DNA of 64,000 nucleotides from positions 147,756 to 211,755 of the forward strand of contig NW_027271623.1 in NCBI RefSeq assembly GCF_040938485.1. Direction: 5' to 3'. The DNA is from Diadema antillarum. Its lineage: Eukaryota. Below the pieces are notes generated by a model. It worked only from the letters and a program-made list of their open reading frames with translations. It ran no database searches and was not told where the DNA came from. Both the position numbers and the translations under genes were made by a program. Shown here piece after piece: positions 7,906-62,828 of the stretch; position 1 is the first letter of the stretch, and each line of letters starts with the position of its first letter.

Positions 7906-8362
7906 TTAGAACCAACAAATGATTTTTTTCATTTGTATATTCAATCACGGCACAAACTTCAGTCCAAATACTGTTCTTCCGGAGGTCCATGCGGATGAAA
8001 TACAACATAAATACGTCAGAAATGAAAAAGAAAATTCATACATAAAAAAAACACACATAGAAAACAGATAAACATGGTGATGAAACTATGACACATGTCT
8101 AGACAGAAACAAACATGATCAATCAAAGATATTCATATACAATTACTATACAAGTATATTGCCGTAGTTTATATGAAAAAAATTCTTTATGTTCCTCCGT
8201 ATAACATCGAAATAATCTAGTTTACTTTCAAAGATTGATTCACAAGACAAAAGGGAAACATAATCAGTTATGAAAGACCGAATTCTTTTCAAGAAATATT
8301 TTTTTTTTTTAACGGTAATAATTTTCGCACAAAATAATCAATATCAGCCCCAGTTCCCGTTG

Positions 8363-10269
8363 TCAACGAGTAAATTTCCCCGTCTTGCGATCTTGTCCAA
8401 ATGTGGAAAGAAAATTAATAACGTTGTTCGCGAGATAAAAAAATCGACCTGATAGTGATTGAAATATGTAAAGTCTATCTGGAGTGCAAAGAGCTATCTC
8501 ACCACTCTCGAAATCTGGTAGATGTAATACCATTGGCTTTTCTGTTTTTTTGTGTCTTGAAATCAGTGACGATATTGTGCACGTGCTCCAAATCTCTCGT
8601 GTATCGATCAATACTGACAAGACCCTCTCTGTGCTTCACCCAGGCTACAATGACCAAATCATCTCGACAAACAGCTGGGAAGGCATACCTACCCTCCTTC
8701 TTCAAGACATGCTCCTTCCCATTACCATCAAGGCACACGACAGCTGATGTGTTAGTCAGTATCAGGTGTCTCCTGGTGTAAAAGGGAAATGCTTGAAAAG
8801 GTAAATACCCATCCCACGTTTTTCCCCCGACTGCCTAACCTCCATGTAATCATATGAAATAAATATCTGGATCTTCTTGCCCGTCACATAACCACATAGA
8901 CAATTATTATCATCTTTATCTAAAGTAAGACTATAACACACATTCCTTCTTCATAACTCGCGAACGTGAAGTCAAGCTAACTGTGGAGTGTATAGTAAAA
9001 TCTTATTGTGTCCATTACGTACGACACTTCGACCACCGGACAGGAATCCAATGTCAGTGTCAGTGACATCGTTCAACACGGTACCGTTACTCGCCACCAG
9101 GGGAGAGCATGGATTCCCCCTTGACCCGATCCCTACCGTCTGGTGCACGAGTAATAACGCTCATGGCGTCTTTGCTATAGGGAGCTCTACATCTGATTGA
9201 CATCCCACGTGTAACCTTTCCGCTCTCCTAGACAAAGTTCATTGATCTTCACGTGTTTAGTGAATGAAATCTTCTGAGCTCTTTCTGTCACACCTCTCGA
9301 TGATTGGTCGTCAGGATCATCTCGTACCATAAAGCTCTTCAAGTTCTCACACAGTGTGTCGTGTGCAGACAAGGCGTCTTTCTCTAGCGGTACCTTCATA
9401 CCGTTAGTTACCAGCTCTTCCATAGCGTTCATTTGACGAATTTTTCGCCGACTCTCTTCCTTGTCGAATTTTTCCGACCGTCGTTTCACTTGACATTTCA
9501 GCACCTCTCTTCTGTCTGACAATTTTTCATGTCTTCTTTGTACGTCTTGTCGATGTCATCATTGAGCCTTCTCAGCGTGTTTTTGATTTCATTGCGTTGT
9601 GTCTCTATGAAGTCAATGTCGTTTCCAACGTTTGTTTTCTTTAATTTTGTTCTTTATCTCAACTTCTTGATATGTTTCGTTAATTTCTCCTCATGGATAG
9701 GTGTTTAATTCTTCCAGATGATGACCAGCTTGCAAGTGCTTTAGCATCCCACAAGCAATACAGATGTACTCCCGACAATGGGTACAGAAACACTCTTCAT
9801 CAGCGCTGGGGTGTTTCTTACACTTCCGTCGTCTCTTCAGCGGAACTTTTCCGGAGAGCACCTCGCTCATGGGCACTACTTTGTGGCTGAAAAGCGGTTT
9901 CCAGATAGAGTGGTCCTTATCACACGATTTACACATATATTTTTCACAGTCCTGACAATAGGACACAGCTGGCGGCTTTTCGTCCATCTCACAAACTGTG
10001 CATGTTGGACTCGTGGTTTTCACTTCGTCCACAAGATAACTCAGGGGTACGTTTGTTTGTAGCTTTCCCACATCCCCACTGGGTACGGGCGTTCCTTTCC
10101 TGCACACAGGACATGTTATAGTTTGTTGGTTGGGCTGAGTTTGAAAGATATGTTCCAGACAGTCTTTGCAGAAGGTGTGAGAGCATGCCAGTAGCTTAGG
10201 TTGGCTGAAAAGTGTCAGACATATTGAACACTCCAGATTGTGGCTGCTGATTTGATGAAACGTTGCCAT
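8363..10269 (-). pseudogene. TRIM-like paralog, degenerate. RING plus two B-boxes are intact (192 aa). The coiled coil is frameshifted, most of the beta-propeller is deleted, and the C-terminal remnant lies at 8363-8738.
   Basis: ORF 9691-10269 (MATFHQISSHNLECSICLTLF...CSHTFCKDCL...) is ~85% identical to the N-terminus of the intact paralog at 21414-23264. ORFs 9187-9522 and 8363-8738 match its coiled coil and C-terminus in shifted frames. Only ~450 bp lie between these pieces, against ~1 kb in the intact gene. Confidence 0.75.
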
Positions 10270-21413: not shown

Positions 21414-23264
21414 TTACAAAATCAAATATGTATCAAATATGTATAGTCTATCTGGAGTGCAGAAAGCTATCTCACCACTCTCAAACTCTTGTAGATAGTA
21501 CCAATTCATTCCTTCTGCTTCTTGTATTTTGAAATCAGTGACGACAGTATGCATGTGCTCCAAATCGCTCGTGTATCGATCGATATTCACGAATCCCTCT
21601 TCGTACTTCACCCGGGCTACAATGACCGAATCATCTCGACAAACAGCTGGGAAGGAAGCCATGTTCTCCTTTTCCTGCAACCGGGCAGACTCTTTACTCT
21701 TCTCATCAAGGCAGATAACATTTGATAAATCTGTCACTATCAGTTTCCCCACGGATTGAAAGGAGAATAATTGGAAGGGTGAACATTCATCACACACTAT
21801 TTCCCTGACTGCCTTACCACCCTGTGGGGTAAATACCTGGATCTTGTTGGGTTTCTTATGACCCACGTAGATATTGTCATCTCTATCCACAGTGAGACCG
21901 CCACGCCCTCCTTCATCAAAACTCATCGTCTCGAATGTGACGTCAAGCTTCTCCCACTGTGAAGTGTATAGTGACACATCGCTTTCAGTATCACGTACAA
22001 CGCTTCGGCCATCAGACAGGAATCCAATTTTACTGACACTGACATCCTGCAACACGGTCTGATGTAACTTGCCATCAGGGGAGTAGAGATGGATTCCGCC
22101 TATAAACGAACCCACCGCCATCTTACCATCTGGTGCACGAGTGATACCGCTCATGCTGTCTTCGCCAGGGAGCTCTACAACATCCCATTTATAATCTTGC
22201 AAGTGTCCCAGATAAAGTTCATTGACGTTCACGTATCTACAGAACGAAACTTTCCGAGCTTCTCCTGTAACACAACTCGGTGACTGGTAGTCAGGATCAC
22301 TTCGTCCCAGAAAGCTTTTCAAGTTCTCACACAGTGTGTCGTGTGCAATCAAGGCGTCTTTCTCTAGTGGTACCTTCATACCATTAGTTACCAGCTCTTC
22401 CAAATCTTTCATTTGACGAATTGTATGCCAACTCTCCTCTTCCATGATCTGTAATTCCGTGTCGAATGATTCAAACCATCGTTTCACTTGGCATTTCAAA
22501 GCCTCTCTTCTGTCAAATAGTAACTTCATGTATTCTTCGTACGTTTTGTCGATGTCCTCATTGAGCCCTTTTAGCATATTTCTTATTTCAATGCGTTGTG
22601 TTTCTATGAAGTCGATACGTTTTCCGACGTTTATTTTCTTTGATTTTGTTCTTTCTCTCAACTCCTTGATATTTATCACCAATTTCTCCTCATGGATGGC
22701 TGCCTCTTCCAGATGATGACCAGCTTGCAGGTGCTTTAGCATCCCACACGGTATGCAACTGTACTCCCGACAATGGGTGCAGAAACACTGTGCATCAGCG
22801 CTGGGGTGTTTCTTGCACTTCCGTCGCCTTTTAAGCGGAACTTTTCCGGTGAGCACCTCGCTCATGGGTACTACTTCATGGTTGGAGAGTGGTTTCCAGT
22901 TACAGTGTCCTTTCTGACATGATTTACACATATATTTTTCACAGTCCTGACAGTAAGACACAGCTGGCGGCTTTTCGTCCATCTCACAAACTGTACAGGT
23001 TGGACTTTTGGTTTTCACTTCGTCCGCTAGAGAACTCAATGGTACGTTTGTTTGCAACTTACTCACATCACCACTGGGTACGGGTGTTCCTTCCCTGCAC
23101 ACAGGACATGTTATAGTTTCTTGGTCGGGCTGGGTTTGAAAGATACGTCCAAGACAGTCTTTGCAGAAGGTGTGAGAGCATGCCAGTGATTTAGGTTGGT
23201 TGAAAAGTGTCAGGCAGATAGGACACTCCAGATTCTGGCTGCTGATTTGATGAAACGTTGCCAT
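21414..23264 (-). CDS. Intact intronless TRIM-like E3 ubiquitin ligase (616 aa): C3HC4 RING, B-box1, B-box2, coiled coil, C-terminal NHL-like beta-propeller
   Basis: Start Met taken at MATFHQ (23262-23264), which is conserved as the start of the two paralogs. The given ORF extends 26 codons further upstream. RING: CPICLTLFNQPKSLACSHTFCKDCL...CPVCR. B-boxes: CTVCE...YCQDCEKYMCKSCQKGH and CKKHPSADAQCFCTHCREYSCIPCGMLKH. Coiled coil ~230-330. Repeated DGK/IYV/IQVF/LYIF blade-like motifs in the C-terminal 300 aa. Confidence 0.8.
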   Translation of the reverse strand: MATFHQISSQNLECPICLTLFNQPKSLACSHTFCKDCLGRIFQTQPDQETITCPVCREGTPVPSGDVSKLQTNVPLSSLADEVKTKSPTCTVCEMDEKPPAVSYCQDCEKYMCKSCQKGHCNWKPLSNHEVVPMSEVLTGKVPLKRRRKCKKHPSADAQCFCTHCREYSCIPCGMLKHLQAGHHLEEAAIHEEKLVINIKELRERTKSKKINVGKRIDFIETQRIEIRNMLKGLNEDIDKTYEEYMKLLFDRREALKCQVKRWFESFDTELQIMEEESWHTIRQMKDLEELVTNGMKVPLEKDALIAHDTLCENLKSFLGRSDPDYQSPSCVTGEARKVSFCRYVNVNELYLGHLQDYKWDVVELPGEDSMSGITRAPDGKMAVGSFIGGIHLYSPDGKLHQTVLQDVSVSKIGFLSDGRSVVRDTESDVSLYTSQWEKLDVTFETMSFDEGGRGGLTVDRDDNIYVGHKKPNKIQVFTPQGGKAVREIVCDECSPFQLFSFQSVGKLIVTDLSNVICLDEKSKESARLQEKENMASFPAVCRDDSVIVARVKYEEGFVNIDRYTSDLEHMHTVVTDFKIQEAEGMNWYYLQEFESGEIAFCTPDRLYIFDTYLIL

Positions 23265-32299: not shown

Positions 32300-33720
32300 T
32301 GAGCAGAGAATGTCGAGGAGGATTGAAGAATAGCTATAGATATGAATTCAGAAAAACTAGTTAAGTTTATGCTTAAATGAATAAAGAGACTGAGATTGGA
32401 TTATTTCTCTATCCAACTCATTCCAAAATTTAGGTCCTGTAGTGGTTATTGTTTTTAAAGCAGATACGGTCCGTACAGGAGAAAGATGAAAAGAATCTTT
32501 TTGTCTAGTAAGGTAAGAATGAACTGCAGTATTTTTGACAAACATCGAAGAAAACACATCAGGGAGACCACCTGAGTTTAATTGATCATAAATGACCCGA
32601 TATTGAAATGATATAAATCCTGGATCTTAGATGTTCTACTGGAAAAGAATAAGACATTAGTGTGTTCCAAAAATGTGGCGAAGTTAATTATCCGTATAGC
32701 TCTTTTCTGTATCAATAGTAAAGAATTACGTCTAGTTGTACAGCAGTTTACCCATGCCAGGATTCCATAACCTGTCCCTAAGGCAAAAATAGAGTAGAAT
32801 ACAATGAATGCAGAACATGTTTAGGAAAATACTGCTTTAACTTATACATAACACCTACATTTTTTGATAGTAATTTACGCAAAGAATCAACATGAACTTT
32901 CCATGTCAACTTACAATCAATATAAAGACCAAGGAATTTTATATATTCCACCTGGTTCAATTCCACGTCGTTTACGACCAACTTACCAGGTAAAATATCG
33001 ATTATATTGCTAAAGACCATAAATTTTGTCTTGGTCAAATTCAGTGACAATTTATTAGCCTGAATCCACTTAGATACTGATTTTAATTCATTATTAATGG
33101 TATTTAGTAAAACATGAGGGTTTCGATTTAAATAAAAAATGCTGGTGTCATCGGCAAAAAGTAGAAAATAGAGCAGAGAGGACGAACTGCGAAAGTCATT
33201 CATATAAAGAATAAACGATAAAGGACCTAAAAGGGATCCTTGCGGTACCCCACAAGTTATAGGCTGTGAGCTGGACACATGGCCATTCAAACTAACAAAT
33301 TGAGTTCTTCCAGTAAGGTAACTTCTAAACCACTCCAAGGCCCTTCCACGAATCCCACAGTGTTGTAATTTGTATAATAATATTTCATGGTTGATTGTGT
33401 CAAAGGCCTTGGAGTAGTCAAGAAAGATACCTACTGTGTGACACTTGGCATCGATCGCTTTAATAATTTTCTCTATCATTAGTAAAATAGCATGAATTGT
33501 CGAATGCTTTTTACGAAATCCAAATCGATTATCATCTATTACATTACAGTCGTTTCATAGAATACGCAATCTTTTCAAGTAATTTAGAAAGAGAAGTTAA
33601 TAACGATATTGGTCGATAATTTCCCAGTTCGTCCTCTCGACCCTTTTTATATATCGGGATAACTTTAGTGATTTTCATCCTAGTAGGCACTACACCGTTC
33701 AGTAATGACAAATTAAATAT
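32300..33720 (-). mobile_element. 5'-truncated LINE fragment (RT C-terminal half plus tail) on the minus strand
   Basis: ORF 32778-33479: ...GIFLDYSKAFDTINHEILLYKL...CGVPQGSLLGPLSFILYMND...FADDTSIF... (RT motifs). ORF 32357-32557: ...FKHKLN tail. Degenerate RT continues above 33479. Confidence 0.75.
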
Positions 33721-42400: not shown

Positions 42401-44097
42401 GATATGAGTCTCTATTGAAAACAACTTCTTGTGGTGTCCCTCAGGGTTCCCTACTTGGCCCGTTATTATTTATCCTGTACATAAACGACCTCCAAAATTC
42501 GTCCCAGATTCTTTCTTTCATATGCTTTGCTGACGACACAAATTTATTTCTTTCACATCGTAACTCAAACACGCTTATACATATGTTAAACAATGAACTG
42601 AAACTTGTTCAGTCCTGGATCCACGCAAATAAGTTGTCACTAAATATTGATAAGACGCATTATATGCTTTTCAGCAATTCTCTGAACTCTGTTTCTGATT
42701 ATGTTAAGATCAATGGTATCTATTTAAACCAGGTAGATAGTATCAAGTTTCTGGGACTTTACATTGATAGTGATCTATCCTGGAAAACCCATATTAACTA
42801 TTTAAGTAAAATTTTGTCCAGAAACATTGGAATTTTAAACAAGCTGAAATATAATTTCCCCATACGTATATTACAAATTATATATTCAACAATGATTTCC
42901 CCTTACCTCAACTATGGAATTCTAGCATGGGGTAATTCGTCCAAATTTTTACTTGATTCGCTATTCCTTCTTCAAAAACGCGCCATCAGAATTATCAATA
43001 ACGCCGGATATTTATCTCATACAAATGAATTTTTTCACAAGAATAAAATTCTGAAATTGATTGATTTGTTTGATTACAATCTAGGTATTTTCATGTATAA
43101 GTACTCAACGAATGATCTTCCTGATGTTTTTCTTCACATGTTCAAAAGAAACTACTCAGTTCACAATTATCCCACCCGCCAACGGGACGCTTATCACCTT
43201 CCACGTACTCGCACAATTTTCGCGATGAAAACAATTATGTATGCGGGACCGAAATACTGGAATGACCTCCCCCCTGAACTCAAAGGTTGTTTATCACTAT
43301 CATCCTTCAAATGCAAATTAAGACAGTATTTATTGAATAATTACGCTACATCAGCTCATTGAAATTCTGTTTTGTGCTGTCCAGGACTATCCCGTTATAC
43401 TGTACTCCAGGGTTGTTGTCATGTAAAACCAGACTTTAAGAGCCCAGCTGTTTGCGCCCTTAAATTCTATCACTGTGTTTATGTATATTTTTCCTTCTTT
43501 AAAGATAGCTGGGACGAGAAAACAGCTGGTATTTCACATTCTCACTGCACTGCAACTGGTTGTTCGATGTTTTTTTTAATGGATTTGCAGGTGCATGTGT
43601 TCCCTTCTTAATACACGCAATGTACACATTTCTAATACTGTCTGAACGGTATCATTGTTATTATAACTATATTAAGTCATATTGTATTGCCAGAACGACA
43701 ATGGTTCATCCGCCTATATACAGCATGTGGCTTTTCCGATCCCTAACCTGCACTAGAGAAGAATTTTGTTATATAACTGTATATTTGTACTTTTTTATTC
43801 ATTTTTTTGTTTTTCTCTTATGTTCCGGTCATTGTTGTACCCGTGCTCCCCTTCTCAATCTTAAACTCGTTTTTAACCGGGACCTACGCTCAACAAGCTC
43901 GCTTTTTAAGTAGGTTCCTTCATATTTCTTTAGCATTCATTCACAGATTCCAAACTGAACAGATCGACCACTATTATGTTTTACATATTTGCAATATTCT
44001 ATGTATGTCATGTATTTCATTTAATTTTGTTATATTTGATGTAATTTTTCATCGAGAAATATGAAAATAAATTGAAATTGAAAATTGAAATTGAAAG
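39412..44097 (+). mobile_element. Full-length-looking AT-rich LINE (CR1/L2-like by its ORF2 tail), nested in the LTR element in opposite orientation. Boundaries are approximate.
   Basis: A poly-G tract at 39378-39411 precedes it. The intact ORF2 is at 40231-43362. The 3' region ends in short tandem AAATTGAAATTGAAA repeats at ~44060-44097. Confidence 0.55.
40231..43362 (+). CDS. LINE ORF2: 1043-aa apurinic/apyrimidinic-like endonuclease plus reverse transcriptase, uninterrupted
   Basis: APE/EEP N-terminal domain (…LFVSHINIRSLNKNFDQF…IIGLSETWL…GGGVGFYV…SDHFPIY…). RT motifs (…FRKQHSTTHAL…FLDFSKAFDTIDHDIL…GVPQGSLLGPLLFILYINDL…FADDTNLF…). Conserved CR1/L2-type tail (…YPTRQRDAYHLPRTRT…GPKYWNDLPPELK…FKCKLRQYLL). 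Confidence 0.9.
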   Translation: MPPNMAEEINANVLPVMNNEVCDYQSPVPNSPLTCSDCEEGNSTDFITSLNAETQELNLDFDLNDISLKNVSSNYLLENDIVTLSHSNPKDLFVSHINIRSLNKNFDQFLSFVNELQFSHMIIGLSETWLKETSPSSQYSINRFKLLTNNRTGKRGGGVGFYVSQTLNYQLLHEYSITSECIECIFVEVITPNKGNIILWEIYRPPHSNPTEFIGLLHDLLSDKYFDNKTCIIMGDFNINLLSYNETTVCQDFLNLMLSKSFIPFIRKPTRISDVTSTLIDNIFVNNLSLDVTSGIVVSDISDHFPIYTLVPQFTARKTPTSNHGIRDMSERNLDRLREGFGSVDWSPVYNAGNVNSSFEVFMKILIETCDNHIPLLKRSKSNYKRIPRQPWITKSLLRSINKKNRLFCRYRKSPNVSTKSRYVCYRNTLTSTLRLAKQQYFYRQFDRCKSDIQSTWKVINTALKSSTKANSPNRILKEGRLIDNPEEMADAFNDFFVNLGPDLAKKIPRSGTPFYSFLRDRNAHTLFSVPIVEEEIKEIVRKLNNKKSTGDDGISVFLLKNIITEIITPLTYIFNQSLSTGKVPEKMKIARVVPIFKKGAEESVSNYRPISLLTSISKILEKLVHKRTLRFLINCNILSNFQFSFRKQHSTTHALLAFIDKVAHALDDASHTIGVFLDFSKAFDTIDHDILLYKLSHYGIRGTAQDWFKDYLTNRKQYVYVNGYESLLKTTSCGVPQGSLLGPLLFILYINDLQNSSQILSFICFADDTNLFLSHRNSNTLIHMLNNELKLVQSWIHANKLSLNIDKTHYMLFSNSLNSVSDYVKINGIYLNQVDSIKFLGLYIDSDLSWKTHINYLSKILSRNIGILNKLKYNFPIRILQIIYSTMISPYLNYGILAWGNSSKFLLDSLFLLQKRAIRIINNAGYLSHTNEFFHKNKILKLIDLFDYNLGIFMYKYSTNDLPDVFLHMFKRNYSVHNYPTRQRDAYHLPRTRTIFAMKTIMYAGPKYWNDLPPELKGCLSLSSFKCKLRQYLLNNYATSAH

Positions 44098-46663: not shown

Positions 46664-49600
46664 TCACCATCCGAATCGCTGTGGGGGTTGAGACTGTCGC
46701 GTGCTGCGACGGGGGCTAATTGTATCCTTGGGATTAGTCTGCGTTCCGGCCTGACGTTTCCCTGGATCGCCTCCATCTTTCAACTTCCGAGCTAAATTCG
46801 CGATCCATGGTGGAACATCGGTGCTGGTATATGGTTTCAGGCGGTCATGATGCAACAATTTAGTCCTTCCCGCCTGTTTGATTCGAATTTCAAAGTTCAG
46901 GTCACTTAATTTTCTAATCACTACGTAGGGACCGACCCATTTACATGGATTTAGCTTTGGTGAAAGTCCCTTTTGTTTCGTGGAGTCTAGAAAATACACT
47001 AAGTCACCTGCTGCATAGTTATTTACCGTCAGTCTCGCATCATAGTTCTTTTTCTGTCTTTCCTTCGCTTCGCTTATGTGTTCCCTCGCTATGCGCGAAG
47101 CTTCCGTCATGGTTGCAACGATGTCGGCTGCGTGATCGTGCGGGGCATTGCGTTCGTGGTCGTTTTCTGGACGATCAATTCCGAGTGAAACTTCGATCGG
47201 CGTGCGTGCCTCCCTTCCCAACATGAGAAAATTGGGGGAGAAGCCGGTTGTCTCGTGTATGGTGCCCCGGTACGCAGATGTTAATAATGATAGATTTTCG
47301 TCCCAGTTCTGTTGTTTCTTGTCTACATATGAGGCAATCATGTCAACCAAAGTCCTATTGAAACGCTCGATCATCCCATTTGATGACGGATGGTACGGGG
47401 AGGTCCTGGTTTTAGATATTTCCAGTAATTTGCATATGTCCTGAAAGAGTGCAGATTCGAATGTCCTTCCCTGGTCAGTATGTATTTCCAGGGGTGTCCC
47501 GAAACGAGCTATGAACTCCCTTACGACCACGTCCGCGACTGTGGTGGCCGTTTGGTCGGGTATGGCGTATGCCTCTATCCATTTCGTAAAGGTGTCCCCG
47601 ACTACAAGGACAAAGCGATTCCCATTGTTGCTTATAGGGAATGGTCCCATGATGTCCATGGCGATGCGGTCCATTGGGGCACCCGAAGTATATTCACCAA
47701 GAGGCGCCCGCGGTTTCGACGACGGCCTTTTTCTCGCTCCGCAAGTCACACAGTTTGCGAGAAAAATACGAAGTGTCTCTTTCATGTTCAGCCAGTAAAA
47801 ACTACGTTGTAGTTTGCTAAGAGTTTTCTTCAGTCCTAAGTGCCCAGATAAGGTCGATGCATGGCTTGATTTCATTACACGATCACGAAGTTTCTCTGGC
47901 ACAACGAGCTGCAGTCCCGCTGTGAGCTTACTGTTCGTGTAATTTCGCTTATATAACAGTCCATCGACCATTTGCAATTGATTCCATAACAGCCACAAAT
48001 TGCGAATTGCTGGGCTCTTGTCGTGGACACGGCTACGAGTTGGTCGCTCTGTAGACTCTGTCAACCACCCGTAGATGATTCCGATGTCGGGGTCCTGTTT
48101 CTGCATTGCGATCAGTTCTGCACGGTCGAGGTTGCCAAGAAGAAGTCTCTGCGGCCCGGAAAAATTTCCAGCGACGGCGTCTGTGTCGGAGACGCAGGGC
48201 AGGTCATTGTTCTGTGCAACGTCAACAGCGTTGTCGCGATCATGTTGTGCCTTACTACCACGTGACTTTGACGCACTCTTCGCACTAAACATTCTCAAAA
48301 CTACATTCGGGGCTGGCCATAATCCCCGTCTCAAAAACTGCGTTGCGTCCCATACATTAACTAGATACACGTGTACTCCAAATAGGCACATTAATCCACA
48401 TAATACCAAAGATCGCGCGTCCGTGATCGACAATGAAATGAGAAATAGGACAAAACAAAGGGCGATGACTGCATGAAAAATTAGACCAGCACATCTTCTC
48501 AACATGTCAGGGCGTGTAGAAGTAGAAGTCTCATGAGTTTGGCTTTCGCGCTCTTCCTTCGGAGGAGTGTGACACACTTCCACTCTTTTTGCTGAGAGAG
48601 GAACAGTGTCGTCCTCGTCAAAGAAGTCGACCCACTCACGATGTCGTCGTCGGCATGTAGAACATCCACCACAAGGTAGCTGCTCGAGTATCAAAGTCCC
48701 ATCAAAACAGTCACATGAATCGGGGTCACACGACACGCGCGATAGCGAGTCTGCATTGCCATGCTTCTTCCCCTCTCGATGCTCGATGGCGAAATCGAAT
48801 TGCGATAAGATCTCTAGCCATCGGGCCATTTGGTCAGTTGGTTCACGGAAGGACATAATCCAGCGAAGAGAGGAGTGGTCAGTTCGAATAAGGAATTTCC
48901 GCCCAAATAGAAAGTGACGAAAATGGCGGACGAAGGCGACCACGGCCAGGAGCTCCCTCCGTGTTGTGCAATATCTTCGCTGAGTTCGTGTCAGAGAACG
49001 ACTAGCAAACGCAATAGAACGCTCAATCTCCTTCTGGGCGGACTCGTCCCACTGCATTTGAGATAGCACTGCTCCTATGCCGTCTGCGGAAGCGTCTGTG
49101 TCCAAGATGAATGTACCGACGTCGTTCGGGTAGGCCATTACGCTGTCACCCATGAGCGCTTGCTTCAACTGTTCGAACCCAGACTGGCACTCGTCGTCCC
49201 ATTTGAAGCGGACTGATTTCCCCAGTAGCTTGTTGAGTGGGGATGCTATAGTGGAAAATCCCCGAATGAAGCGGCGATAATATGAGCAAAGGCCCAGAAA
49301 AGATCTCACATCACTCACCGATGACGGGGTCGGCCAGTCTGCAATTCGACGTACCTTCTCTGGATCGGGCTTTATTCCCGCTTCGCTGACGACATGTCCG
49401 AGATATGCCACTTCGCTACGAAAAAGCTCGCACTTGCTCGGTTTAAGTTTCAGTCCAGCCGAGCTCAGCCTAACAAGGACCTCGTCGAGACGTCGTATGT
49501 GTTCGTCGAACGTCGAGCCCATGACGATGACGTCGTCCAGATACAAAATTAATGTTTTCCATTGTAGTCCTTTCATGATAAGCTCCATTGCACGCTCGAA

Positions 49601-50920
49601 TATGCCAGGCGCGTTGCACAAACCAAACGGCATAGTAACATACTCATAGTGACCAGTCCGTGTGCTGAACGCCGTTTTCTGTCGATCCTCCTCCTTTATC
49701 TCTATTTGCCAGTAACCGGACTGGAGGTCGAGAGTGGAGAAAAGTTTCGCCCCACCCAAACAGTCCAGGCAGTCTTCGATTAATGGCAAGGGATAAGCGT
49801 CTTTCTTGGTAACATCGTTTAGCTTGCGGTAGTCTACACATTGTCGCGTAGATCCATCGCGTTTTCGCACATATACGAGAGGACTCGACCACGGACTCGT
49901 CGATTCGCGAATGATACCAGCCTTAAGTTGCTCGTCGATAATCTTCTCCTCCTCCCCCTCGAAGGCACGAGGCGGACGGCGTGGTCGTTGCTTAATTGGC
50001 TGAGCATCACCCGTGTCGATAGTATGCTGGAAGACTGATGTGCGGCCGTGGTCAGATGGCGAAGAAGCAAACACTTTAAGATGTTTTTCGATTAAATTCG
50101 AGAGCTGCTCGCATTCTTCATCGCTGAGACCAATGATGCTGCGATCATAAAGCTCTTTTACTCCATCAGGCCAACTGCTGGCGTCGATATTGTCAGAAAC
50201 AGTCAGTTTGTCAATGCGGGCTGACGGGGAACGTTCGTGGTCGACGATGTCGGGCACCACACTTACGGACTCGATGCTAGCGATGCGTGTGCCCGCGAAC
50301 AACTGAATGTCATCAAAGTTGGTATTCGCCACACGAATTGGTATGTCGATGTCTCGCCGGCAGACATCGACAAGGCAGTGGGCGACGTGCACAGGTATCT
50401 CAACTCCTCTAATTGGCTCTACAATGGCATAGGACGCTTGGCGTGTGAACTCAGTGTCAATCGTCTTTCCGGCAACAATGCACTCTGAATTTGCCGGTAC
50501 CACTATATCGCTCTTCACATAAACATTAACAACGTTGACAATAGCATTATCTCCATCATATTCAATCGGAAATAATTGATCACCGATGCGAAGACCGCGT
50601 CTAGCCTCCAGGCTGCAATTGAAATGATGCAAAAAGTCGAATCCCAGGAGACCATCATCGGCAACATCAGCTACATATGCATTCCACTCAAAAGGCTTAT
50701 CCCCCAGTCTCACACAAATTTTAACGCATCCATAAACAGAGAGAAATCCATTGTCCGCTGCTTGAAGCTGAATATTTTCAACTAGCTGCTGCATAACTGG
50801 GCGCGAATGGTGGGGCATACGTTCATACAATTTTAATGAAATAACAGTGACCGCTGCACCAGAGTCGACCAACAGCTTAGCGTTCACGCCACTAACATCA
50901 GCTTTAACAAAGGCTGACAT
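46664..50920 (-). CDS. pol: Ty3/gypsy Pol polyprotein (1418 aa): aspartic protease, RT, RNase H, integrase (HHCC zinc finger, DDE core, GPY/F C-terminal module)
   Basis: PR: LLVDSGAAVTVIS. RT: …YLDDVIVMG…. RNase H: …DTDASADGIGAVLSQ…. IN: H-x4-H…C-x2-C (HASTLSGHLGLKKT…CVTCGARK), D…D…E (IAMDIMGPFP / VLVVGDTFTKW… / IHTDQGRTFES), and …CKWVGPYVV…. Confidence 0.92.
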   Translation of the reverse strand: MSAFVKADVSGVNAKLLVDSGAAVTVISLKLYERMPHHSRPVMQQLVENIQLQAADNGFLSVYGCVKICVRLGDKPFEWNAYVADVADDGLLGFDFLHHFNCSLEARRGLRIGDQLFPIEYDGDNAIVNVVNVYVKSDIVVPANSECIVAGKTIDTEFTRQASYAIVEPIRGVEIPVHVAHCLVDVCRRDIDIPIRVANTNFDDIQLFAGTRIASIESVSVVPDIVDHERSPSARIDKLTVSDNIDASSWPDGVKELYDRSIIGLSDEECEQLSNLIEKHLKVFASSPSDHGRTSVFQHTIDTGDAQPIKQRPRRPPRAFEGEEEKIIDEQLKAGIIRESTSPWSSPLVYVRKRDGSTRQCVDYRKLNDVTKKDAYPLPLIEDCLDCLGGAKLFSTLDLQSGYWQIEIKEEDRQKTAFSTRTGHYEYVTMPFGLCNAPGIFERAMELIMKGLQWKTLILYLDDVIVMGSTFDEHIRRLDEVLVRLSSAGLKLKPSKCELFRSEVAYLGHVVSEAGIKPDPEKVRRIADWPTPSSVSDVRSFLGLCSYYRRFIRGFSTIASPLNKLLGKSVRFKWDDECQSGFEQLKQALMGDSVMAYPNDVGTFILDTDASADGIGAVLSQMQWDESAQKEIERSIAFASRSLTRTQRRYCTTRRELLAVVAFVRHFRHFLFGRKFLIRTDHSSLRWIMSFREPTDQMARWLEILSQFDFAIEHREGKKHGNADSLSRVSCDPDSCDCFDGTLILEQLPCGGCSTCRRRHREWVDFFDEDDTVPLSAKRVEVCHTPPKEERESQTHETSTSTRPDMLRRCAGLIFHAVIALCFVLFLISLSITDARSLVLCGLMCLFGVHVYLVNVWDATQFLRRGLWPAPNVVLRMFSAKSASKSRGSKAQHDRDNAVDVAQNNDLPCVSDTDAVAGNFSGPQRLLLGNLDRAELIAMQKQDPDIGIIYGWLTESTERPTRSRVHDKSPAIRNLWLLWNQLQMVDGLLYKRNYTNSKLTAGLQLVVPEKLRDRVMKSSHASTLSGHLGLKKTLSKLQRSFYWLNMKETLRIFLANCVTCGARKRPSSKPRAPLGEYTSGAPMDRIAMDIMGPFPISNNGNRFVLVVGDTFTKWIEAYAIPDQTATTVADVVVREFIARFGTPLEIHTDQGRTFESALFQDICKLLEISKTRTSPYHPSSNGMIERFNRTLVDMIASYVDKKQQNWDENLSLLTSAYRGTIHETTGFSPNFLMLGREARTPIEVSLGIDRPENDHERNAPHDHAADIVATMTEASRIAREHISEAKERQKKNYDARLTVNNYAAGDLVYFLDSTKQKGLSPKLNPCKWVGPYVVIRKLSDLNFEIRIKQAGRTKLLHHDRLKPYTSTDVPPWIANLARKLKDGGDPGKRQAGTQTNPKDTISPRRSTRQSQPPQRFGW

Positions 50921-51003
50921 ACCTGAATGTCTGTTGATTCTTATTATCCTATTCGGCGCAGTCGAGTGTCGGGCCGATCCCTGGTCGATGAGGTCGGCCC
51001 GCT

Positions 51004-52173
51004 CTAGTTTCCCTGTTGTGTGGATGGCTGGTGACTGGGAGGTGGGGGCTGCTCATGCTCAGGCGACCACGGCTGCTGAGGCACAAACGGTGGTGGGGGT
51101 GGTGCCCACGCTGGCTCCGGTTGAGGTTGTTGACGGGGTTGTTGCCGGTGTTGTTGCCACTGTTGCTGCCACGGTTGTTGTCCTCGATATGCTGTTTGTC
51201 CCCAGGCATCCCGTGCAAACCGTTCATTCTGACGACAATTTCTGGCTATGTGTCCCAGTTTCTGGCAATTATAGCATCGCACCGGTGCTCGACCACCGTT
51301 TCCTCCTCGCTGCCCACATGGTGCTTTTTGCCGATTGCTGCCCACATCACTAGCCTTGTCTTCCGGTAATAATCCGGCAAACTTGTGTTCTATTGCGTCC
51401 ATCACGCGTTTTTCGAAAGAAGTGAGGCGCTCCTCAATAACATCGGTCGCCGTCGTCGTTCCCGTGATTGACCTCACAGGCCTCCTCACGGACTCCTCTC
51501 TCAGGTTCATGTACCTCTCCGCTATTTCCATAGCAACCTGCAATGTTTTGGGCTCATGCATCCCAATGGCTAGAGTCATTCCTCCATCGCATAGCCCTCT
51601 GAGGAAATGTCGCACGGCAATGGTTTCGGTGGTTGCCGGGTCCGCGGTTGGATAACCGAATTTTGACAGCCGGCGGATGTCGCCGGCGTACTCTGAGATG
51701 GGTTCTCTCGTTCCTAGGCGGCGCGCCTCAAGTTGGGTGATGTACGGTGTCGCGCTCTTTCTCGATGAGAATCTCTCTGATAGCGCCTTTATGAGTTTGA
51801 CATCGCTTTCGGTGGCATCAGCTGGTAATTGTTGGAAGGCGAAGTCGGCCGCGTCCCCTCGCAACGAAGCTAGCAGCCGAAATCGCCTCTCCCGTGAGTC
51901 CCATTTACACGCGTCGCTGAGATTGTTAAAAGCAGACAAAAAGCTCTCCCATGAACGTGTCCCGTCGAACAATTCCTGGTTTGGAATTTGAACACGCCGC
52001 CGCCTTTGGTCGTCAGGTAGTATCGAAGCACCGGCATCTGTTTCGTCGTCGGTCGATTCTGCCCCCTCTTCCACGCTGACCGTGGATTTTTGAAGGTCGC
52101 GCCTCGCCTGATCCAACTCCTCACGGAGTTGCTTCAGTTCACGCTGGAGATCCGCCTTTCTCTTTGGAGGCAT
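51004..52173 (-). CDS. gag: Gag (389 aa) with a CCHC zinc knuckle and a Gln/Pro-rich C-terminus
   Basis: CYNCQKLGHIARNC. Basic coiled-coil N-terminus MPPKRKADLQRELKQLREELDQARRDL. Stop lies 84 bp upstream of the pol start, in a different frame, so frameshifting or readthrough is expected. Confidence 0.85.
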   Translation of the reverse strand: MPPKRKADLQRELKQLREELDQARRDLQKSTVSVEEGAESTDDETDAGASILPDDQRRRRVQIPNQELFDGTRSWESFLSAFNNLSDACKWDSRERRFRLLASLRGDAADFAFQQLPADATESDVKLIKALSERFSSRKSATPYITQLEARRLGTREPISEYAGDIRRLSKFGYPTADPATTETIAVRHFLRGLCDGGMTLAIGMHEPKTLQVAMEIAERYMNLREESVRRPVRSITGTTTATDVIEERLTSFEKRVMDAIEHKFAGLLPEDKASDVGSNRQKAPCGQRGGNGGRAPVRCYNCQKLGHIARNCRQNERFARDAWGQTAYRGQQPWQQQWQQHRQQPRQQPQPEPAWAPPPPPFVPQQPWSPEHEQPPPPSHQPSTQQGN

Positions 52174-55350: not shown

Positions 55351-56982
55351 TCAAATTTCACATTTCGTCGCAACAAATATGTACACTCTATCTGCAGTGG
55401 AGAAAGCTATCTCACCGCTCTCAAATTCCTGTAGATGGCATTCACTTCCAAGTACAAGATTTTGAATTTTGAAATCAGAGACGATATCGTACATGTGCTC
55501 CAAATCTTTCGTGTATCGATCGATACTGATGGTATCCTCAATGTAATCTACCCAGGCTACAATGACCGAATCATCTCGACAAACAGCTGGCCAGGCTGCA
55601 ATACCCTCCTTCCTTAAGACATTCTCCTTCTTCCCATTACTATTAATGCACATGACTTCTAATACCATTGGCACTTCATTTACTATGAAATTCCTCGAAG
55701 TGTGGAAGGAGAAAAGAGTGAAAGGAAAAAAAGCTTCATTGTCAAATGTTATTTCCCTGACTGGCTCACCACCCTGTGGGGTGAATACCTGGATCTGAGG
55801 GCATGTAGGGGATATTGAATAACACACGTAGATATTATCATCTTTATCCACAGCTAGAGCAGCAATATCTTCTTTATCGCAACTCATCGTCTCGAACTCA
55901 GTGTCGAGTTTTTCCCACTGTGGAGTGTACATGGAAATCTCATTTTCTGAATTGCGTATGACACTTCGACCATCCGACAGGAATCGAAAATCAGAGATAC
56001 CGACATCCTTCAGCACGGTTTGCTGTGTCTCACCATCAGGGGAGAAAATGTGGATTCCTCCTTCATCCGAACCCACCGCCATCTTACCGTCTGGTGCACA
56101 AATCATACACTCTATGTTGTCTTTGCTCGGGAGCTCCATTACGTCTACTTTGACATCCCACGAGCAAGTTTTCAGCTCTCCAATGTAATGTTCATTAACC
56201 TTCACTTGTCTACTAAATGAAATCTTCTCCGCTCGCTCTGTCACACCTCGCGGTGATTGGTCGTCAGGATCATCTCGTCCAAGAAGGCTCTCCAGGTTCT
56301 CGCACAGCGTGTCGTGCACAAACAAAGCATCTTTCTCCAGCGGTATCTTCGTGCCGTTGGTAACCAATTCTTCCACAGCGTTCATGTGACTGACTGTTTG
56401 GCGACTCTCTTCCGTCATAGTTTGTAATTCCTTCTCGAATTTTTCAGACAATCGCTTCACTTGAGATTTCAGGGCTTCTCTTCTGTCTAACAAAAGCTGC
56501 ATGCTCTCCTCGTAAGTCTTCTCGATGTCATCATTAAGCTTTCTTAGCATTCTTGTTACTTCATTGCGTTGTGTCTCTATGAACTCGATATGGTTTTCAA
56601 TGGTTGTTTTCTTTGATTTTGTTTTTTCTTTCAACTTCTTGATATTTTCAATTAATTTCTTTTCATGGATGACTGCCTCTTCCAGCTTGTGTCCCTCTTG
56701 CAAATGCTTCAGCATCCCGCATTTATTGCACGTGTACTCTCGGCAATTGGGGCAGAAACAGTCTTCATCCTCATTAGGGTGTTTCTTACATTTCCGTCGC
56801 CTCTTGATTGGAACTTTTCCTGAGAGCACCTCGCTCATGGCTACTATTGAGTGGATGGAGAATGGTGTCCAGGTAGAGTGGCTTTTCTCACAGGCTTTAC
56901 ACATATATTTCCCACAGTCCTGACAGTAGGACACGGCTGGCGGTTTTTCCTCCGTCTTACAAACCGTGCACGTTGGACTCCG
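55351..56982 (-). pseudogene. TRIM-like paralog 3, distal part (B-box1, B-box2, coiled coil, beta-propeller). The 527-aa ORF is intact but is separated from its RING exon by transposon insertions.
   Basis: ORF 55351-56934 extends in frame up to 56982 (…RSPTCTVCKTEEKPPAVSYCQDCGKYMC…). It is ~60-70% identical to the corresponding region of 21414-23264. Confidence 0.75.
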
Positions 56983-56984
56983 GG

Positions 56985-58919
56985 GGTGGTATTCTGTAAG
57001 GGCGATCCTTATTTCGATCCTAGGAGCGCGCGTAGGACAGAAAATAGGATACCCTTAGGACAGGCAAAATCGGTATTCTGTAAGCCTGTCCTAAGCCTAT
57101 CCTAGGACAGTCATTTATAAATAATGAATATTAATGAGGAAAGACAGGACACGCCCGGCGCAGTATCTATAAGCCAATCATCTGGCTAATTTTACGCAAT
57201 GCGCGCCCAAGATCTACATTGCTCAAACATGCGCTTCACGCAGCTCTTACTGTGCGAGGAGTTAAAATGTATTGTCAGTCTAATTTTACAGTTAAGAATA
57301 CAATTTTGATTATCAAAGCTTTAGCACGCACTTAGCCCACCATAATAGATGTGACCTTACGAGTTCCATTAATTAGCATTTAAAGTTTTTGCAGAAATTA
57401 GCTCAAATTTTGAACTTTTGGAGGATGTTGGGGTAAACTGGGATATCATCACTGCATGCCAAACTTCGCCCTTAATTCAAAGTTATTATAAAATATATAA
57501 GATTTTCTTAAATAAATATAAATAATAATAATGATAATAATAGATGCACTCACAGACACACACACACATGCGCTCACATTATTTTATAAATATGATCGAT
57601 ATGCTTGTAATGATAATGTCTTGCTTATAGTTAGGACCTACTGTTTGTCCCACTTAAACCAAACCAATGTTCCACTTCTCCCAGGAAAAAAAACCAATTA
57701 TAACACAAATATGAGACTTATACGAATATAGCGTAGCAACCCGTTATATGGCTAGCATCAAAAGTCTTTTGGTCCGATACATGTGTGCCCGGCCATTCTA
57801 GATATTAGAAAGTTATTCGAGAAACTTCATCAAATCACAATTTTTGTCCCTCTTAATTCACCCCGCTAGCTCTCCCCTATCTTTATGGTAGTATAGACTT
57901 ACATGCAGGGCAATGATAACAGAATAAATAAACAGAATAAATAAAGGAGATTACTGATAGATTAAACAAAGATATAAACATGGAGCTACTATAGCTCCAT
58001 GATATCCTTGTATACGGGTGCTGTTCGCTATTCCGAAGGTTCGTTAATCCGAAACACACAAATTCTCCATACCTAGAGGTTCGTTAATCCGAAAATGAAA
58101 AAGGGTTCGTTAATCCGAATATTTGTGGCGTTATTTCGAAGGTTCGTTATTCTGAAGATTTGTTAATTCGAAAATGAAATTTGGAATAACGAACCTTCGG
58201 AATAACGAATCTTCAGACTGGAGCATTCGGAATAACGAACCTTCGGAATAACGAGCTGTAACCGTATAAACACGTAAGTTCACTACATTTTGGAAAAAAA
58301 AAATGTTAACCCATGCACATGGACTGTTAGGTCACCGGGTTGCGTCACACACTATACGTACGTCTTAACAATAATGTGAGCGTATGGATCGTTGCGTTAC
58401 TAATACTTTACATGGCCGGCGGAACACAAAGAAATGCATAAGGTGTCATCACTTTGGGCCCCCACAATTTTTTTTAACCCGGAAGTACGTAAGTGGCACT
58501 AAATAGAAATAGATAGAGATCTTGAAGTGTGCGGAACGCGGTAAGGTTATGTTTTTCCAATGTAGACTTTTTTTTATTCGCTTGTCAGCTGAAGAAACCC
58601 AGAAATGGAAAGGGTGAGAGGAGCTGAGAACCTTTTTTTATTTTTTTTTTCTTGTTAGCTCATGAAACCCGGAAGTAGGCCCCCACGCTTTTAAAAACGT
58701 TCAGTCGGCCCTGCTTTATTCTTCACGCGACCTAGAAGCACACTGCGTACGTTTCTTTTTCTTTGGTTACTAGATCTTCATAGCAACGACTTCGAGGGTC
58801 ACGTAATGTGGGCGGCGAAGGTAGGCTACTTGCACCGCGTCCGCATGACGTTCGGGCAGACGTTGAGCATAATAATAATGATAACAATAATGACAATAAT
58901 GATAATAATAATAATAATG

Positions 58920-58960
<41 letters not shown>

Positions 58961-59600
58961 AATAATAACAATAACAATGATAATATTAATAATGATGATA
59001 ATTATTATCATTATTACAATATTAATTATAATTATAATAATAGCTTTTGTTGTTATTGTGTACATAATGTACTTTTTATTTATTTTGTGCCGAATAAAAT
59101 GAAATGTGAATTGAATTGAAAATGGCGAACAACAAACAAATAAACACATACCAGCTAGATAAAGAATACAACTGTTTCGAACATAATAGACTGCAGTTTT
59201 AGAATCCTCAGTATGAAAGGGACAGATAACTCTGTTATACGATTCATGTATCTATTTTCTTGTTCATGAACATACAAAATAAGAGACAGTGGGTCGTCAG
59301 TAGGCCTATATACGCAATAGCCCGGCATAATCGCCAGAGAAAGATTGCCTAGAGGCTATCCTTATTTTTGCTCCTAAACTTGATCCTACTTGTGCTTACA
59401 GAATACCACTTATCTTAAGATCTCATTAACATCTAATTACATCTAATTAACATATCAAGTTACGCCCCTATCCTAAACTGGGAAAGAAATAAGGATCCCT
59501 GACGTCACTATCCTATTTCTCCTCCTACGCGCGGTGTTACAGAATACCAATCGCGTATTTAGGAGCGAGAGCTGTCCTAGGATCCTTACAGAATACCACC
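56985..59600. mobile_element. Non-autonomous TIR (DNA-transposon-like) element, 2.6 kb, with 17-bp perfect TIRs GGTGGTATTCTGTAAGG, inserted in the TRIM coding sequence
   Basis: Left TIR 56985-57001; its reverse complement at 59584-59600. Sub-terminal GGTATTCTGTAAG / CCTAGGA repeats on both sides. No transposase ORF. Internal inverted GGTTCGTTAATCCGAA / TTCGGAATAACGAACC repeats at 58020-58260. Internal (AAT)n at 58862-59040. Confidence 0.75.
58862..59040. repeat. (AAT)n / (AATAAT)n microsatellite inside the TIR element
   Basis: Direct reading. It generates the spurious poly-N, poly-I and poly-L ORFs on both strands. Confidence 0.95.
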
Positions 59601-59603
59601 CCT

Positions 59604-59732
59604 GGGGGGCATTTCATGAAGCATTTTGTCTGACAACTTGTCGGACAAATTTGCTTTCAGCCAATCAGATGCAAGGATTTCGGTAGCTTTTAACAGTTTG
59701 TCAGACAAAATATCTGACAAAAGGCTTCATGA
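59604..59732. mobile_element. Palindromic MITE (~129 bp) with TIR GGGGGGCATTTCATGAAGCATTTTG
   Basis: GGGGGGCATTTCATGAAGC…GCTTCATGAAATGCCCCCC. Confidence 0.7.
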
Positions 59733-59733
59733 A

Positions 59734-59882
59734 ATGCCCCCCTGTGGGGCATTTCATGAAGCATTTTGGTCGGATATTTTTTTGACAGACTGTTACAAGC
59801 TATTGAAAACCTTGCATATGATTGGCTGAGAGCCCAATTTGTCCGACAACTTTCGAACAAAATGCTTCATGAAATGCCCCCC
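59734..59882. mobile_element. Second, tandem copy of the same MITE family (~148 bp)
   Basis: GTGGGGCATTTCATGAAGCATTTTGG…AAAATGCTTCATGAAATGCCCCCC. Confidence 0.7.
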
Positions 59883-59883
59883 A

Positions 59884-60138
59884 GGTTTTCACTTCGTCTA
59901 CGAGAGAACGCAGGGGTATGTTTGTTTGTAACTTACTCACACCTCCACTGGGTACGGGCGTTCCTTTCCTGCACACAGGGCATGTTATAGTTTGTTCGTC
60001 GGGCTGAGTTTGAAAGATACGTCCCAGACAGTCCTTGCAGAAGGTGTGAGAACATGTCAGTGATTTAGGTTGGTTGAAAAGTGTCAGACAAATAGGGCAC
60101 TCCAGATTCTGGCTGCTGATTTGATGAAACGTTGCCAT
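59884..60138 (-). pseudogene. TRIM-like paralog 3, orphaned 5' coding segment (RING finger, 85 aa up to …LVDEVKT)
   Basis: MATFHQISSQNLECPICLTLFNQPKSLTCSHTFCKDCLGRIFQTQPDEQTITCPVCRKGTPVPSGGVSKLQTNIPLRSLVDEVKT, then the reading frame runs into the MITE terminus. In the intact paralog the next residues are KSPTCTVCE, which here resume at 56982. Confidence 0.8.
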
Positions 60139-61884: not shown

Positions 61885-62828
61885 TTAAAGGGAACGTAAA
61901 CCCAAAGAGCAACGTGGATTGAGTGAAAGCAGTAACATTAGTAGAACACATCAGTGAAAGTTTGAGGAAAATCGGGCAATCGATGCAAAAGTTATGAATT
62001 TTTAAAGTTTTGGTGTTGGAACTGCTGGGTAAGGAGACTACTAGAGGTTATGACGTATGAGAGGACTACAACATTTATTTATTCAGTCTTCTTTAAAAAC
62101 AGGGTAGTCTTTTCAGAGCCAAAAGGCCTGCTTTTAAAAAGAGCCCTGTTAACATAAATATAACAATTACACATCGAAACATATTTGCATAAAATAATGT
62201 AAACAAAAAAAGTAATTACATCAAAACCAAAATATACCAAGTCAAAACACAATAACAACTAAACAGGAAAACAAACAAACAAACAAAACGAAACAGAAAC
62301 CATTAAACTAAGCTCATAACAGAACAATATGCTACATAACAAGACAGGGTAACCAACCTGCCACATAACAGTTGTGGCTACAGTTAGTGCGCAAAACTGT
62401 AAGAATGAATAAACCAGAATTTGCGTCAAATCTGCACTTACGACATGAAGAAAATATAAAGGGAATTCAATAGAAATTCATTTTTCATGAAAATTACACA
62501 TTCCATCAACTTGATACTGACATATGTTAGGGGTAGCACTTATTCCCCCTGCTTTCTGAAAGCGGTTAGTGAAGTACTCTTTCATTTTGCTATAAAAGTG
62601 ATTTTTTTTGTGTGTGGAATTCCTTTTATATTTTCTTTGTATTGTTGTCCACTCATACGTCATAACCTCTAGTAGTCTCCTCATTCAGCGGTTCCAACAC
62701 CAAAACTTTAAAAATTCTTAACTTTTGCATCGATTGTCCGATTTTCCTCAAACTTTCACTGATGTGTTCTAATAATGTTAATGCTTTTACTCAATCCACA
62801 TTGCTCTTTGAGTTTGCATTCCTTTTAA
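61885..62828. mobile_element. Foldback MITE, family FB-2, copy b (944 bp; ~215-bp inverted arms, ~530-bp core), flanked by a TTAA target-site duplication
   Basis: Arms 61889-62100 and 62630-62824 are reverse complements. The paralogous sequence upstream of TRIM copy 2 (23615-23640, …CTATTAAGCACTGAAACGTCC…) is an empty site with a single TTAA. Confidence 0.85.

Follow-up and report, generated by a model that had tools for sequence, protein, structure and literature searches.

Split of a Diadema antillarum TRIM paralog between its RING and B-box coding regions by stacked transposons that resemble Nuwa-type PIF/Harbinger elements

Introduction

Several TRIM proteins naturally lack a RING domain (TRIM14, TRIM16, TRIM29 and TRIM44) and, together with RING-deleted constructs, these indicate that the RING-less format is viable and that such proteins can hetero-oligomerise with RING-bearing partners. 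At small-RNA loci, inverted pairs of transposons form hairpin RNA precursors, including hairpins derived from MITEs (miniature transposable elements with inverted repeats). Here we describe TRIM paralog 3 (P3) of the sea urchin Diadema antillarum, a gene that is cut in two by transposon insertion. P3 is encoded on the minus strand of a 64,000-nucleotide stretch of contig NW_027271623.1 (assembly GCF_040938485.1, forward-strand positions 147,756 to 211,755), which was analyzed as a whole and is referred to as the window. Like the RING-less TRIMs, the P3 frame downstream of the break has a B-box2, a coiled coil and a substrate domain without a RING. Unlike them, it arose by transposon disruption, has only a candidate promoter and carries a first ATG that truncates B-box1.

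In diadematid sea urchins, single-exon TRIM-NHL-like genes make up a large family, to which P3 belongs. The best protein matches were about 100 paralogs from D. antillarum and D. setosum with 60-72% identity, followed by proteins of Strongylocentrotus and Lytechinus with about 40% identity; for the intact paralog of the window (P2) the best Diadema protein match was about 72% identical, and no exact match to the P2 sequence was present in the assembly collection. With the products of this diadematid expansion (~610-620 amino acids (aa), named TRIM2/3/45/71-like by NCBI) P3 shares a RING, two B-boxes, a coiled coil and a propeller-like C-terminal domain, and its coding sequence likewise occupies a single exon once the insert is removed. 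These relatives are 64-72% identical to P3 as a whole and 84% identical across the N-terminal 330 residues. Unlike them, P3 is interrupted, and no other C-terminal domain among the 71 sequences compared diverges as strongly as that of P3.

The described transposons with which the elements in P3 are compared below are those of the Nuwa clade, reported by Han et al. (2015; PMC4482050) within the PIF/Harbinger (PHIS, PIF/Harbinger-ISL2EU-Spy) superfamily. NuwaI elements have 3-bp CWG duplications and terminal inverted repeats (TIRs) that usually start with GGG, and NuwaII elements have the target C|TNA|G and TIRs that start with GG. Families with the targets C|CTG|G, C|CWG|G and C|NNN|G are listed in Table S7 of that survey, with C|CTG|G and C|CWG|G given for NuwaII-1/2_MZeb. 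The TIRs of the clade are 12-61 nt in length, its non-autonomous derivatives are 0.4-2.5 kb, and no echinoderm is among the listed hosts (16 genomes for NuwaI and 12 species for NuwaII) (PMC4482050).

Results and Discussion

P3 is broken in the linker between RING and B-box1

Three TRIM copies (P1, P2 and P3) were detected within the window by tblastn with intact P2 as the query, and P3 was recovered as two pieces that matched residues 1-85 and 82-610. Six D. setosum loci were included for comparison of exon structure and linker sequence. The reading frames (ORF, open reading frame) and copies needed for the comparison are as follows.

59884..60138, minus strand: RING fragment of P3, codons 1-85 (MATFHQ...DEVKT), all eight zinc ligands kept
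55351..56982, minus strand: downstream open frame of P3, 543 codons plus stop, with B-box1, B-box2, coiled coil and six-bladed-propeller-like C-terminal domain
59800..60138, minus strand: 112-aa read-through ORF, in which the RING is followed by 27 residues from MITE M1 and a stop
55351..56906, minus strand: longest ATG-initiated ORF in the downstream frame, 517 aa, ATG at 56904-56906, inside B-box1
21417..23264, minus strand: paralog P2, intact, with 616 aa encoded in one exon; used as the paralogous empty site, …GTGAAAACC AAA AGTCC…
8456..10269, minus strand: paralog P1, a decayed pseudogene without an insertion at the linker (ACC ACG AGT)

The two coding pieces of P3 are separated by 2901 bp (59883-56983). 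As had been proposed from a first inspection of the sequence (the original prediction), the RING frame (MATFHQ...DEVKT) runs as far as 59884 and reopens at 56982 on the minus strand with RSPTCTVC. Alignment to the paralogs agreed with this assignment, and P2 and the D. setosum relatives were found to run uninterrupted through the same point, with the continuation that had been expected of an intact paralog. Removal of the 2901 bp restores a single-exon gene as in P2 and the D. setosum relatives. When the rejoined P3 protein was analyzed with Pfam, matches were obtained to RING at residues 13-58 (E=6e-10), to zf-RING_UBOX at residues 14-54 (E=6.4e-10) and to zf-B_box (E=7.3e-7) over two stretches, the best of which spans residues 91-132; the first B-box begins at residue 88-91. 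The break, located after residue 85 and four codons ahead of the first B-box cysteine, thus falls in the linker, which places the split between RING and B-box1 as claimed initially. Residues ~190-330 displayed heptad-like patterns of charged and hydrophobic residues as judged by eye. A C-terminal profile made from seven domains matched six-bladed propellers (DFPase, E=3e-5) as well as the NHL domains of TRIM71, Thin, TRIM3 and TRIM2 (E=0.002-0.03); the Pfam NHL model did not match the C-terminal domain, and the SGL model matched it weakly.

The insert consists of two MITEs and a 2.6-kb element arranged side by side

The 2901 bp were resolved into the following elements and flanking triplets, listed from the RING side to the B-box side.

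59882..59884, minus strand: flanking triplet 1, CTG; it begins at 59884, a base that also completes the ACC codon at the end of the RING fragment
59745..59881, minus strand: MITE M1, 137 bp, TIR GGGGGCATTTCATGAAGC with one terminal mismatch
59742..59744, minus strand: flanking triplet 2, CAG, common to M1 and M2
59605..59741, plus strand: MITE M2, 137 bp, perfect TIRs, perfect 3-bp duplication CTG/CTG (plus strand)
59602..59604, minus strand: flanking triplet 3, CAG, common to M2 and element A
56984..59601, minus strand: element A, a 2618-bp non-autonomous TIR element with the perfect 18-nt TIR GGGTGGTATTCTGTAAGG
58011..58268, no strand assigned: fourth element, a MITE of 258 bp nested in A, flanked by TA and with TIRs of 43 nt that are 86% complementary
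56981..56983, minus strand: flanking triplet 4, CCG; the CGG codon at the start of the downstream frame takes its first two bases from the end of this triplet

Along the plus strand the order is C|CGG|A|CTG|M2|CTG|M1|CAG|G, and in minus-strand order it is RING - CTG - M1 - CAG - M2 - CAG - A - CCG - B-box. The three elements and three times 3 bp cover all extra bases (137 + 137 + 2618 + 9 = 2901). Within element A the TIR sequence GGTGGTATTCTGTAAGG forms a perfect inverted pair at 56985-57001 and 59584-59600, and counting the TIR from GGTGG gives A a length of 2616 bp, the size at which a non-autonomous TIR element had first been recognized here. The interior of A was found to contain subterminal GGTATTCTGTAA repeats (copies of the TIR core) and microsatellites, and to have no ORF with a Pfam match. 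The two MITEs, reported earlier as ~140 bp, are each 137 bp, and their 18-mer GGGGGCATTTCATGAAGC occurs at 59605, 59724, 59745 and 59864, that is, as two inverted pairs; these 18-nt TIRs continue imperfectly to ~30 nt. By chance, 0.03-0.1 such TIR matches are expected (0.03 for GGGGGCATTTCATGAAGC). The original prediction of a nested cluster of three DNA elements is borne out as to their number; the three lie side by side, and only the fourth element, a 258-bp MITE made of repeated GGTTCGTTAATCCGAA units, is nested, inside A.

M1 and M2 fit the MITE definition (less than ~800 bp, with TIRs and a flanking duplication and without coding capacity) and belong to one family in opposite orientation. 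At 82.6% identity they represent two separate arrivals and not a local duplication. A local inverted duplication of one MITE was ruled out, given perfect TIRs in A and M2 but an M1/M2 identity of only 82.6%. Likewise, a hAT-type 8-bp or other longer target duplication was ruled out for A, the flanks of which match only as 3 bp (2/3) or 5 bp (4/5).

The M1/M2 pair bears on whether the interruption is a real allele or an artefact of assembly or haplotype merging. The two inverted MITEs fold into a hairpin of very high stability (dG -184 kcal/mol), a structure that can trouble assemblers and polymerases. Against an artefact, each boundary is a clean TIR end beside a C-CNG-G triplet, the extra sequence equals the element lengths plus 9 bp exactly, and the coding frames on either side fit together to the base. 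Clean boundaries and exact rejoining of this kind are not what a misjoin would give, and we consider an artefact extremely improbable.

A 3-bp spacer separates M1 from M2, which face each other head to head, and the RNA of this region (59602-59884) is predicted to fold to a ~140-bp hairpin (dG -184.4 kcal/mol, z = -24.5). The predicted hairpin of M1 and M2 has the inverted-pair fold of MITE-derived hairpin precursors. In Rfam the hairpin gave sub-threshold matches of hairpin type only, with MIR8562 at 71.5 bits compared to a gathering score of 211. The hairpin is located directly 3' of the RING exon in the same transcription unit and so could be a candidate source of double-stranded RNA.

The elements are stacked at a C-CNG-G site absent from most relatives

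Six intact copies, P2 and five relatives from D. setosum, have GAAGTGAAAACC-AAG/AAA-AGTCC at the position of the break. A further D. setosum locus (L125) has the linker ACC AGG AGT, in which CCAGG occurs naturally. When the three elements and three of the four triplets are removed, P3 reads GAAAAC-CNG-GAGTCC and is of exact paralog length; compared to seven intact copies, exactly 9 bases are extra besides the three elements. The plus-strand pentamers at the junctions are CCGGG (56980-84), CCTGG (59601-05), CCTGT (59741-45) and CCAGG (59881-85). Three junctions, CCGGG, CCTGG and CCAGG, had been reported before, and these pentamers are exact; the list lacked the fourth, CCTGT.

Grouped by element on the plus strand, the triplet pairs are CTG/CTG for M2, CTG/CAG for M1 and CGG/CTG for A. 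The four triplets differ at the central base only, with the outer C and G invariant, and the two that deviate are the outermost. Ordinary mutation, a repair error at integration or donor-derived overhangs pairing at a palindromic target may explain these central-base differences. Since a palindromic target that is duplicated leaves a fresh copy on each flank, re-use of one spot is possible.

A CCNGG-like target, as was hinted at from the junctions, matches published Nuwa-clade sites (CWG, C|CTG|G and C|CWG|G; PMC4482050). Similar to that clade, the TIRs of M1 and M2 (GGGGGCATTTCATGAAGC) and of A (GGGTGGTATTCTGTAAGG) start with GGG and are 18 nt in length, within the range of the clade, and the flanks resemble 3-bp CWG-type triplets with a conserved C before and a conserved G after. 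The ambiguity between a 3-bp and a 5-bp duplication is also the one described for NuwaII (PMC4482050). Unlike autonomous Nuwa elements, those in P3 have no transposase or Myb-like ORF. Unlike the Nuwa rule, the duplication is identical for one of the three elements only (M2), and one flank is CCG. Taken together, termini and target suggest that M1, M2 and A are non-autonomous Nuwa-type PIF/Harbinger elements.

A recent insertional pseudogene is the favored explanation

We consider P3 to be, with a probability of roughly two in three (0.68), a recent insertional pseudogene generated by three Nuwa-type non-autonomous PIF/Harbinger elements stacked on one C|CAG|G site. Support for this insertion history comes from the exact split with in-frame rejoining, from TIRs that are far beyond chance and from the perfect duplication that flanks M2. 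The history would begin with a Lys-to-Arg replacement (AAG to AGG) that turned ACC AAG AGT into ACC AGG AGT and thereby created C|CAG|G. An element of the Nuwa clade would then have inserted at C|CWG|G and duplicated the middle 3 bp, a step for which the structure is seen at P3 and the mechanism is taken from published families, and each insertion would leave a fresh C-CWG-G on both flanks. Two further elements would have used the regenerated sites, which makes three independent cut-and-paste insertions at one trinucleotide.

As a consequence, the native promoter and start codon would now yield at most the 112-aa RING-only peptide that ends in M1. The AATAAA signals in A (at 59084, 58720, 58642 and 58578) would probably end the transcript, and the 543-codon frame would be left without its start codon and promoter. 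That this frame is still open would be due to too little time for decay, less than ~0.05 neutral substitutions per site.

Several observations weigh against this explanation. The four triplets are non-identical (CTG, CAG, CAG and CCG on the minus strand), and at least two central-base changes are needed if all derive from one target; the probability that at least 2 of the 12 flanking sites changed is below 0.05 for K<0.03 (K, substitutions per site), a poor fit to a very young insertion. Survival of the open frame under neutrality had a simulated probability of 0.12 at K=0.03 and 0.04 at K=0.05, and the product of the neutral open-frame probability and the triplet-change probability is at most ~0.006 at any K. 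This product is a small post hoc tension and the sole argument for retention of the gene.

The elements themselves also lack counterparts. No further copies of M1, M2 or A were found by blastn in the rest of the window and in four D. setosum loci (~87 kb). A metagenome scan with the 17-nt TIR core followed by blastn against the 120 returned loci, and a custom scan for inverted repeats that start with GGG and are flanked by CWG, covering six Diadema loci and the window, gave microsatellite or chance matches only. The duplication length, the element ends and the family assignment are accordingly those read from the copies in P3. Among the large window ORFs submitted to Pfam none matched a DDE_Tnp_4-type transposase, and the superfamily assignment accordingly draws on termini and target only.

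The insert does not have the properties of a precise intron

We also considered that the whole 2.9-kb insert is spliced out as a new intron, by cryptic or non-canonical sites, such that a RING-bearing TRIM with perhaps a slightly altered linker is still made. The insert length of 2901 is a multiple of three, and the transposon ends ...CCCCCCAG|G look like 3' splice sites. At the boundaries the sequence is ACC|TG...CC|CGG, with no GT...AG (or GC...AG) at the junctions that would restore the frame, in agreement with the earlier statement that the insert does not look like a precise intron, and the acceptor-like triplet beside the B-box frame is CCG and not CAG.

Candidate sites were scored with a rough matrix of metazoan splice-site frequencies. 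Three in-frame, stop-free pairs that keep at least part of B-box1 were identified (59942 to 57053, 59936 to 57053 and 59940 to 56919), and two further in-frame pairs (59942 and 59936 to 56843) skip B-box1 entirely. All of these cryptic sites scored below 3 bits on this rough scale, and each in-frame join deletes part of the RING-linker or of B-box1 or adds transposon-derived residues; none restores the RING-B-box linker. A precise intron was ruled out on these grounds.

The coding sequence is in one exon in every family member compared: it is one uninterrupted exon in five of the six D. setosum loci, the sixth (L126) is intron-free with a RING frameshift, and all seven intact relatives compared have an uninterrupted single exon at the break position. 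Since family members are single-exon, an intron at the P3 break position is not a family feature. With AATAAA signals also present inside the would-be intron, we judge splicing of the insert to be very unlikely.

A RING-less product of the downstream frame is weighed against loss of function

The downstream frame was confirmed to be free of stops over 1.6 kb, with 543 codons open, and it extends 24 codons upstream into the end of A. Its start required correction. The first Met had been placed at 56934, a codon that is actually GTG (the Val of ...PPAVSYCQ...); no ATG occurs before 56904. The 527-aa ORF of the original prediction proved to be an artefact of the bacterial code, the open frame being 543 codons plus 24 transposon codons and the ATG-initiated ORF 517 aa. 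This ORF starts with MCKACEK, after the first four zinc ligands of B-box1, and a D. antillarum protein model (P0084) of 506 aa is likewise RING-less and starts at the same MCKACEK. The ATG at 56904 lies in the context AAATATATGT, a weak Kozak sequence, and the native ATG has the context GACACTATGG.

Near the B-box-proximal end of A, a TATAAA at 57119 and an inverted CCAAT (ATTGG) at 57178 were detected on the minus strand, and no ATG is found between 57114 and 56904. These motifs constitute a candidate outward-reading promoter; they are short and chance-expected in AT-rich transposon DNA.

Conservation was examined across 71 family sequences. The RING fragment of P3 violates none of 52 family-conserved columns. 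In the C-terminal domain, 17 of 106 columns are violated at a conservation threshold of at least 90% of sequences, the highest count in the family, yet at a threshold of at least 95% only 3 of 43 are, all three conservatively. All P3-specific indels are in frame. The ratio of nonsynonymous to synonymous substitution rates (dN/dS; Nei-Gojobori, three-point) on the P3 branch was 0.38 for the RING, 0.29 for the B-box/coiled-coil region and 0.63 for the C-terminal domain, compared to family pairwise values of ~0.13-0.37, 0.20-0.36 and 0.49-0.88, respectively. Unique nonsynonymous and synonymous changes numbered 50 and 28 in P3 versus 37 and 22 in P2 (Fisher p=1). Relaxed constraint in P3 was thus rejected, as dN/dS is like that of the family and the counts are like those of P2. 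This comparison, which had been proposed earlier for the downstream ORF, revealed no decay and is uninformative for the post-insertion period. The pattern is that of a fast-evolving but selected gene, and either the split is recent relative to the branch or selection continues.

Continued selection would apply if the downstream frame were a working gene, with a promoter in or at the end of A and the ATG at 56904 giving a 517-aa protein that has no RING and half of B-box1. Such a protein could dimerise via its coiled coil and bind targets via its propeller, and might for example inhibit RING-bearing relatives, as in the dominant-negative form suggested initially. In its favor are the 543-codon frame without stop or frameshift, the indels that are all in frame, the C-terminal pattern of divergence at the 90% columns with conservative changes at the 95% columns, the candidate promoter with its ATG-free leader, and the joint improbability under neutrality of changed triplets and an intact ORF. 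The last of these arguments concerns two bases and is post hoc, and selection before the insertion explains the divergence pattern equally well. The ATG at 56904 has a poor context, the promoter motifs are of a kind expected by chance, and no homolog of at least 90% identity was found in the protein collection. Thus, we regard a RING-less gene as unlikely.

A broader form of this proposal, in which the locus is re-wired, is in our view quite unlikely. Here the promoter of A would drive a selected TRIM-propeller protein with no RING and half of B-box1, and the native promoter would yield a RING-only peptide together with the 140-bp MITE hairpin, which could feed a small-RNA pathway. This arrangement would account for the open 543-codon frame despite the mutated-looking triplets.

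Two D. setosum loci were examined as possible precedents. The L125 locus (7719-9575), called as a RING-less model of 524 aa, was rejected, as its RING lies upstream in the same frame and the gene call is a truncated one. The L126 locus (7796-9641) has a genuine RING frameshift with a downstream frame of 546 aa that is open, which parallels P3.

Turnover of the TRIM cluster

P1 is stopped after 192 aa, and its frame changes at least three times; with P1 decayed and P3 split, two of the three TRIM copies of the 64-kb cluster are broken. The three neighbors, one intact, one decayed and one freshly split, exemplify birth-and-death turnover in the sea-urchin TRIM expansion. The split of P3 is probably ordinary gene death in a fast-turnover family, the kinds of gene and of element are already known, and the case has no bearing on any long-standing open question. 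It provides a base-resolved example of how a transposon that duplicates a palindromic C|CWG|G target turns one insertion into a landing pad for more. The elements also suggest that Nuwa-type PIF/Harbinger transposons are present in echinoderms, a host group absent from the Nuwa lists of the 2015 survey (PMC4482050). Should the RING-less frame turn out to be both expressed and under constraint, it would offer a natural example of a RING-less TRIM variant made by a transposon.

Genomic surroundings

The TRIM cluster is located in transposon-rich DNA. Three TIR elements flanked by TTAA (TTAAAGG...CCTTTAA) were found at 61885-62828, 19972-20549 and 19371-19734, one of them with 187-nt TIRs; one falls within the P3 upstream region and the other two are downstream of P2. 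Their family is one that targets TTAA, for example piggyBac or Kolobok. A 262-bp MITE at 3213-3474 has 48-nt TIRs that start with CAGTGGGAATGCTGGGGG, and a related motif is present in the 19371-19734 element. A Ty3/gypsy-like retrotransposon occupies 46664-52173 on the minus strand, with a gag that contains a zinc knuckle and a 1418-aa pol with reverse transcriptase (RT), RNase H and integrase. A long interspersed nuclear element at 40231-43362 on the plus strand encodes endonuclease and RT (1043 aa), and an RT fragment is found at 32778-33479.

Upstream of P3, the block from -216 to -638 is 86% identical to the block from -2913 to -3332 of P2 (60139-60776 versus 26177-26596, upstream on the minus strand). 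In both P2 and P3 a splice-acceptor-like ...ttgcttatag is located just ahead of a leader that contains (ACAG)n and the ATG. The similar upstream blocks and acceptor-like ends suggest that P2 and P3 have a promoter and a non-coding 5' exon in common and that the leader intron of P2 holds ~2.7 kb of additional DNA.

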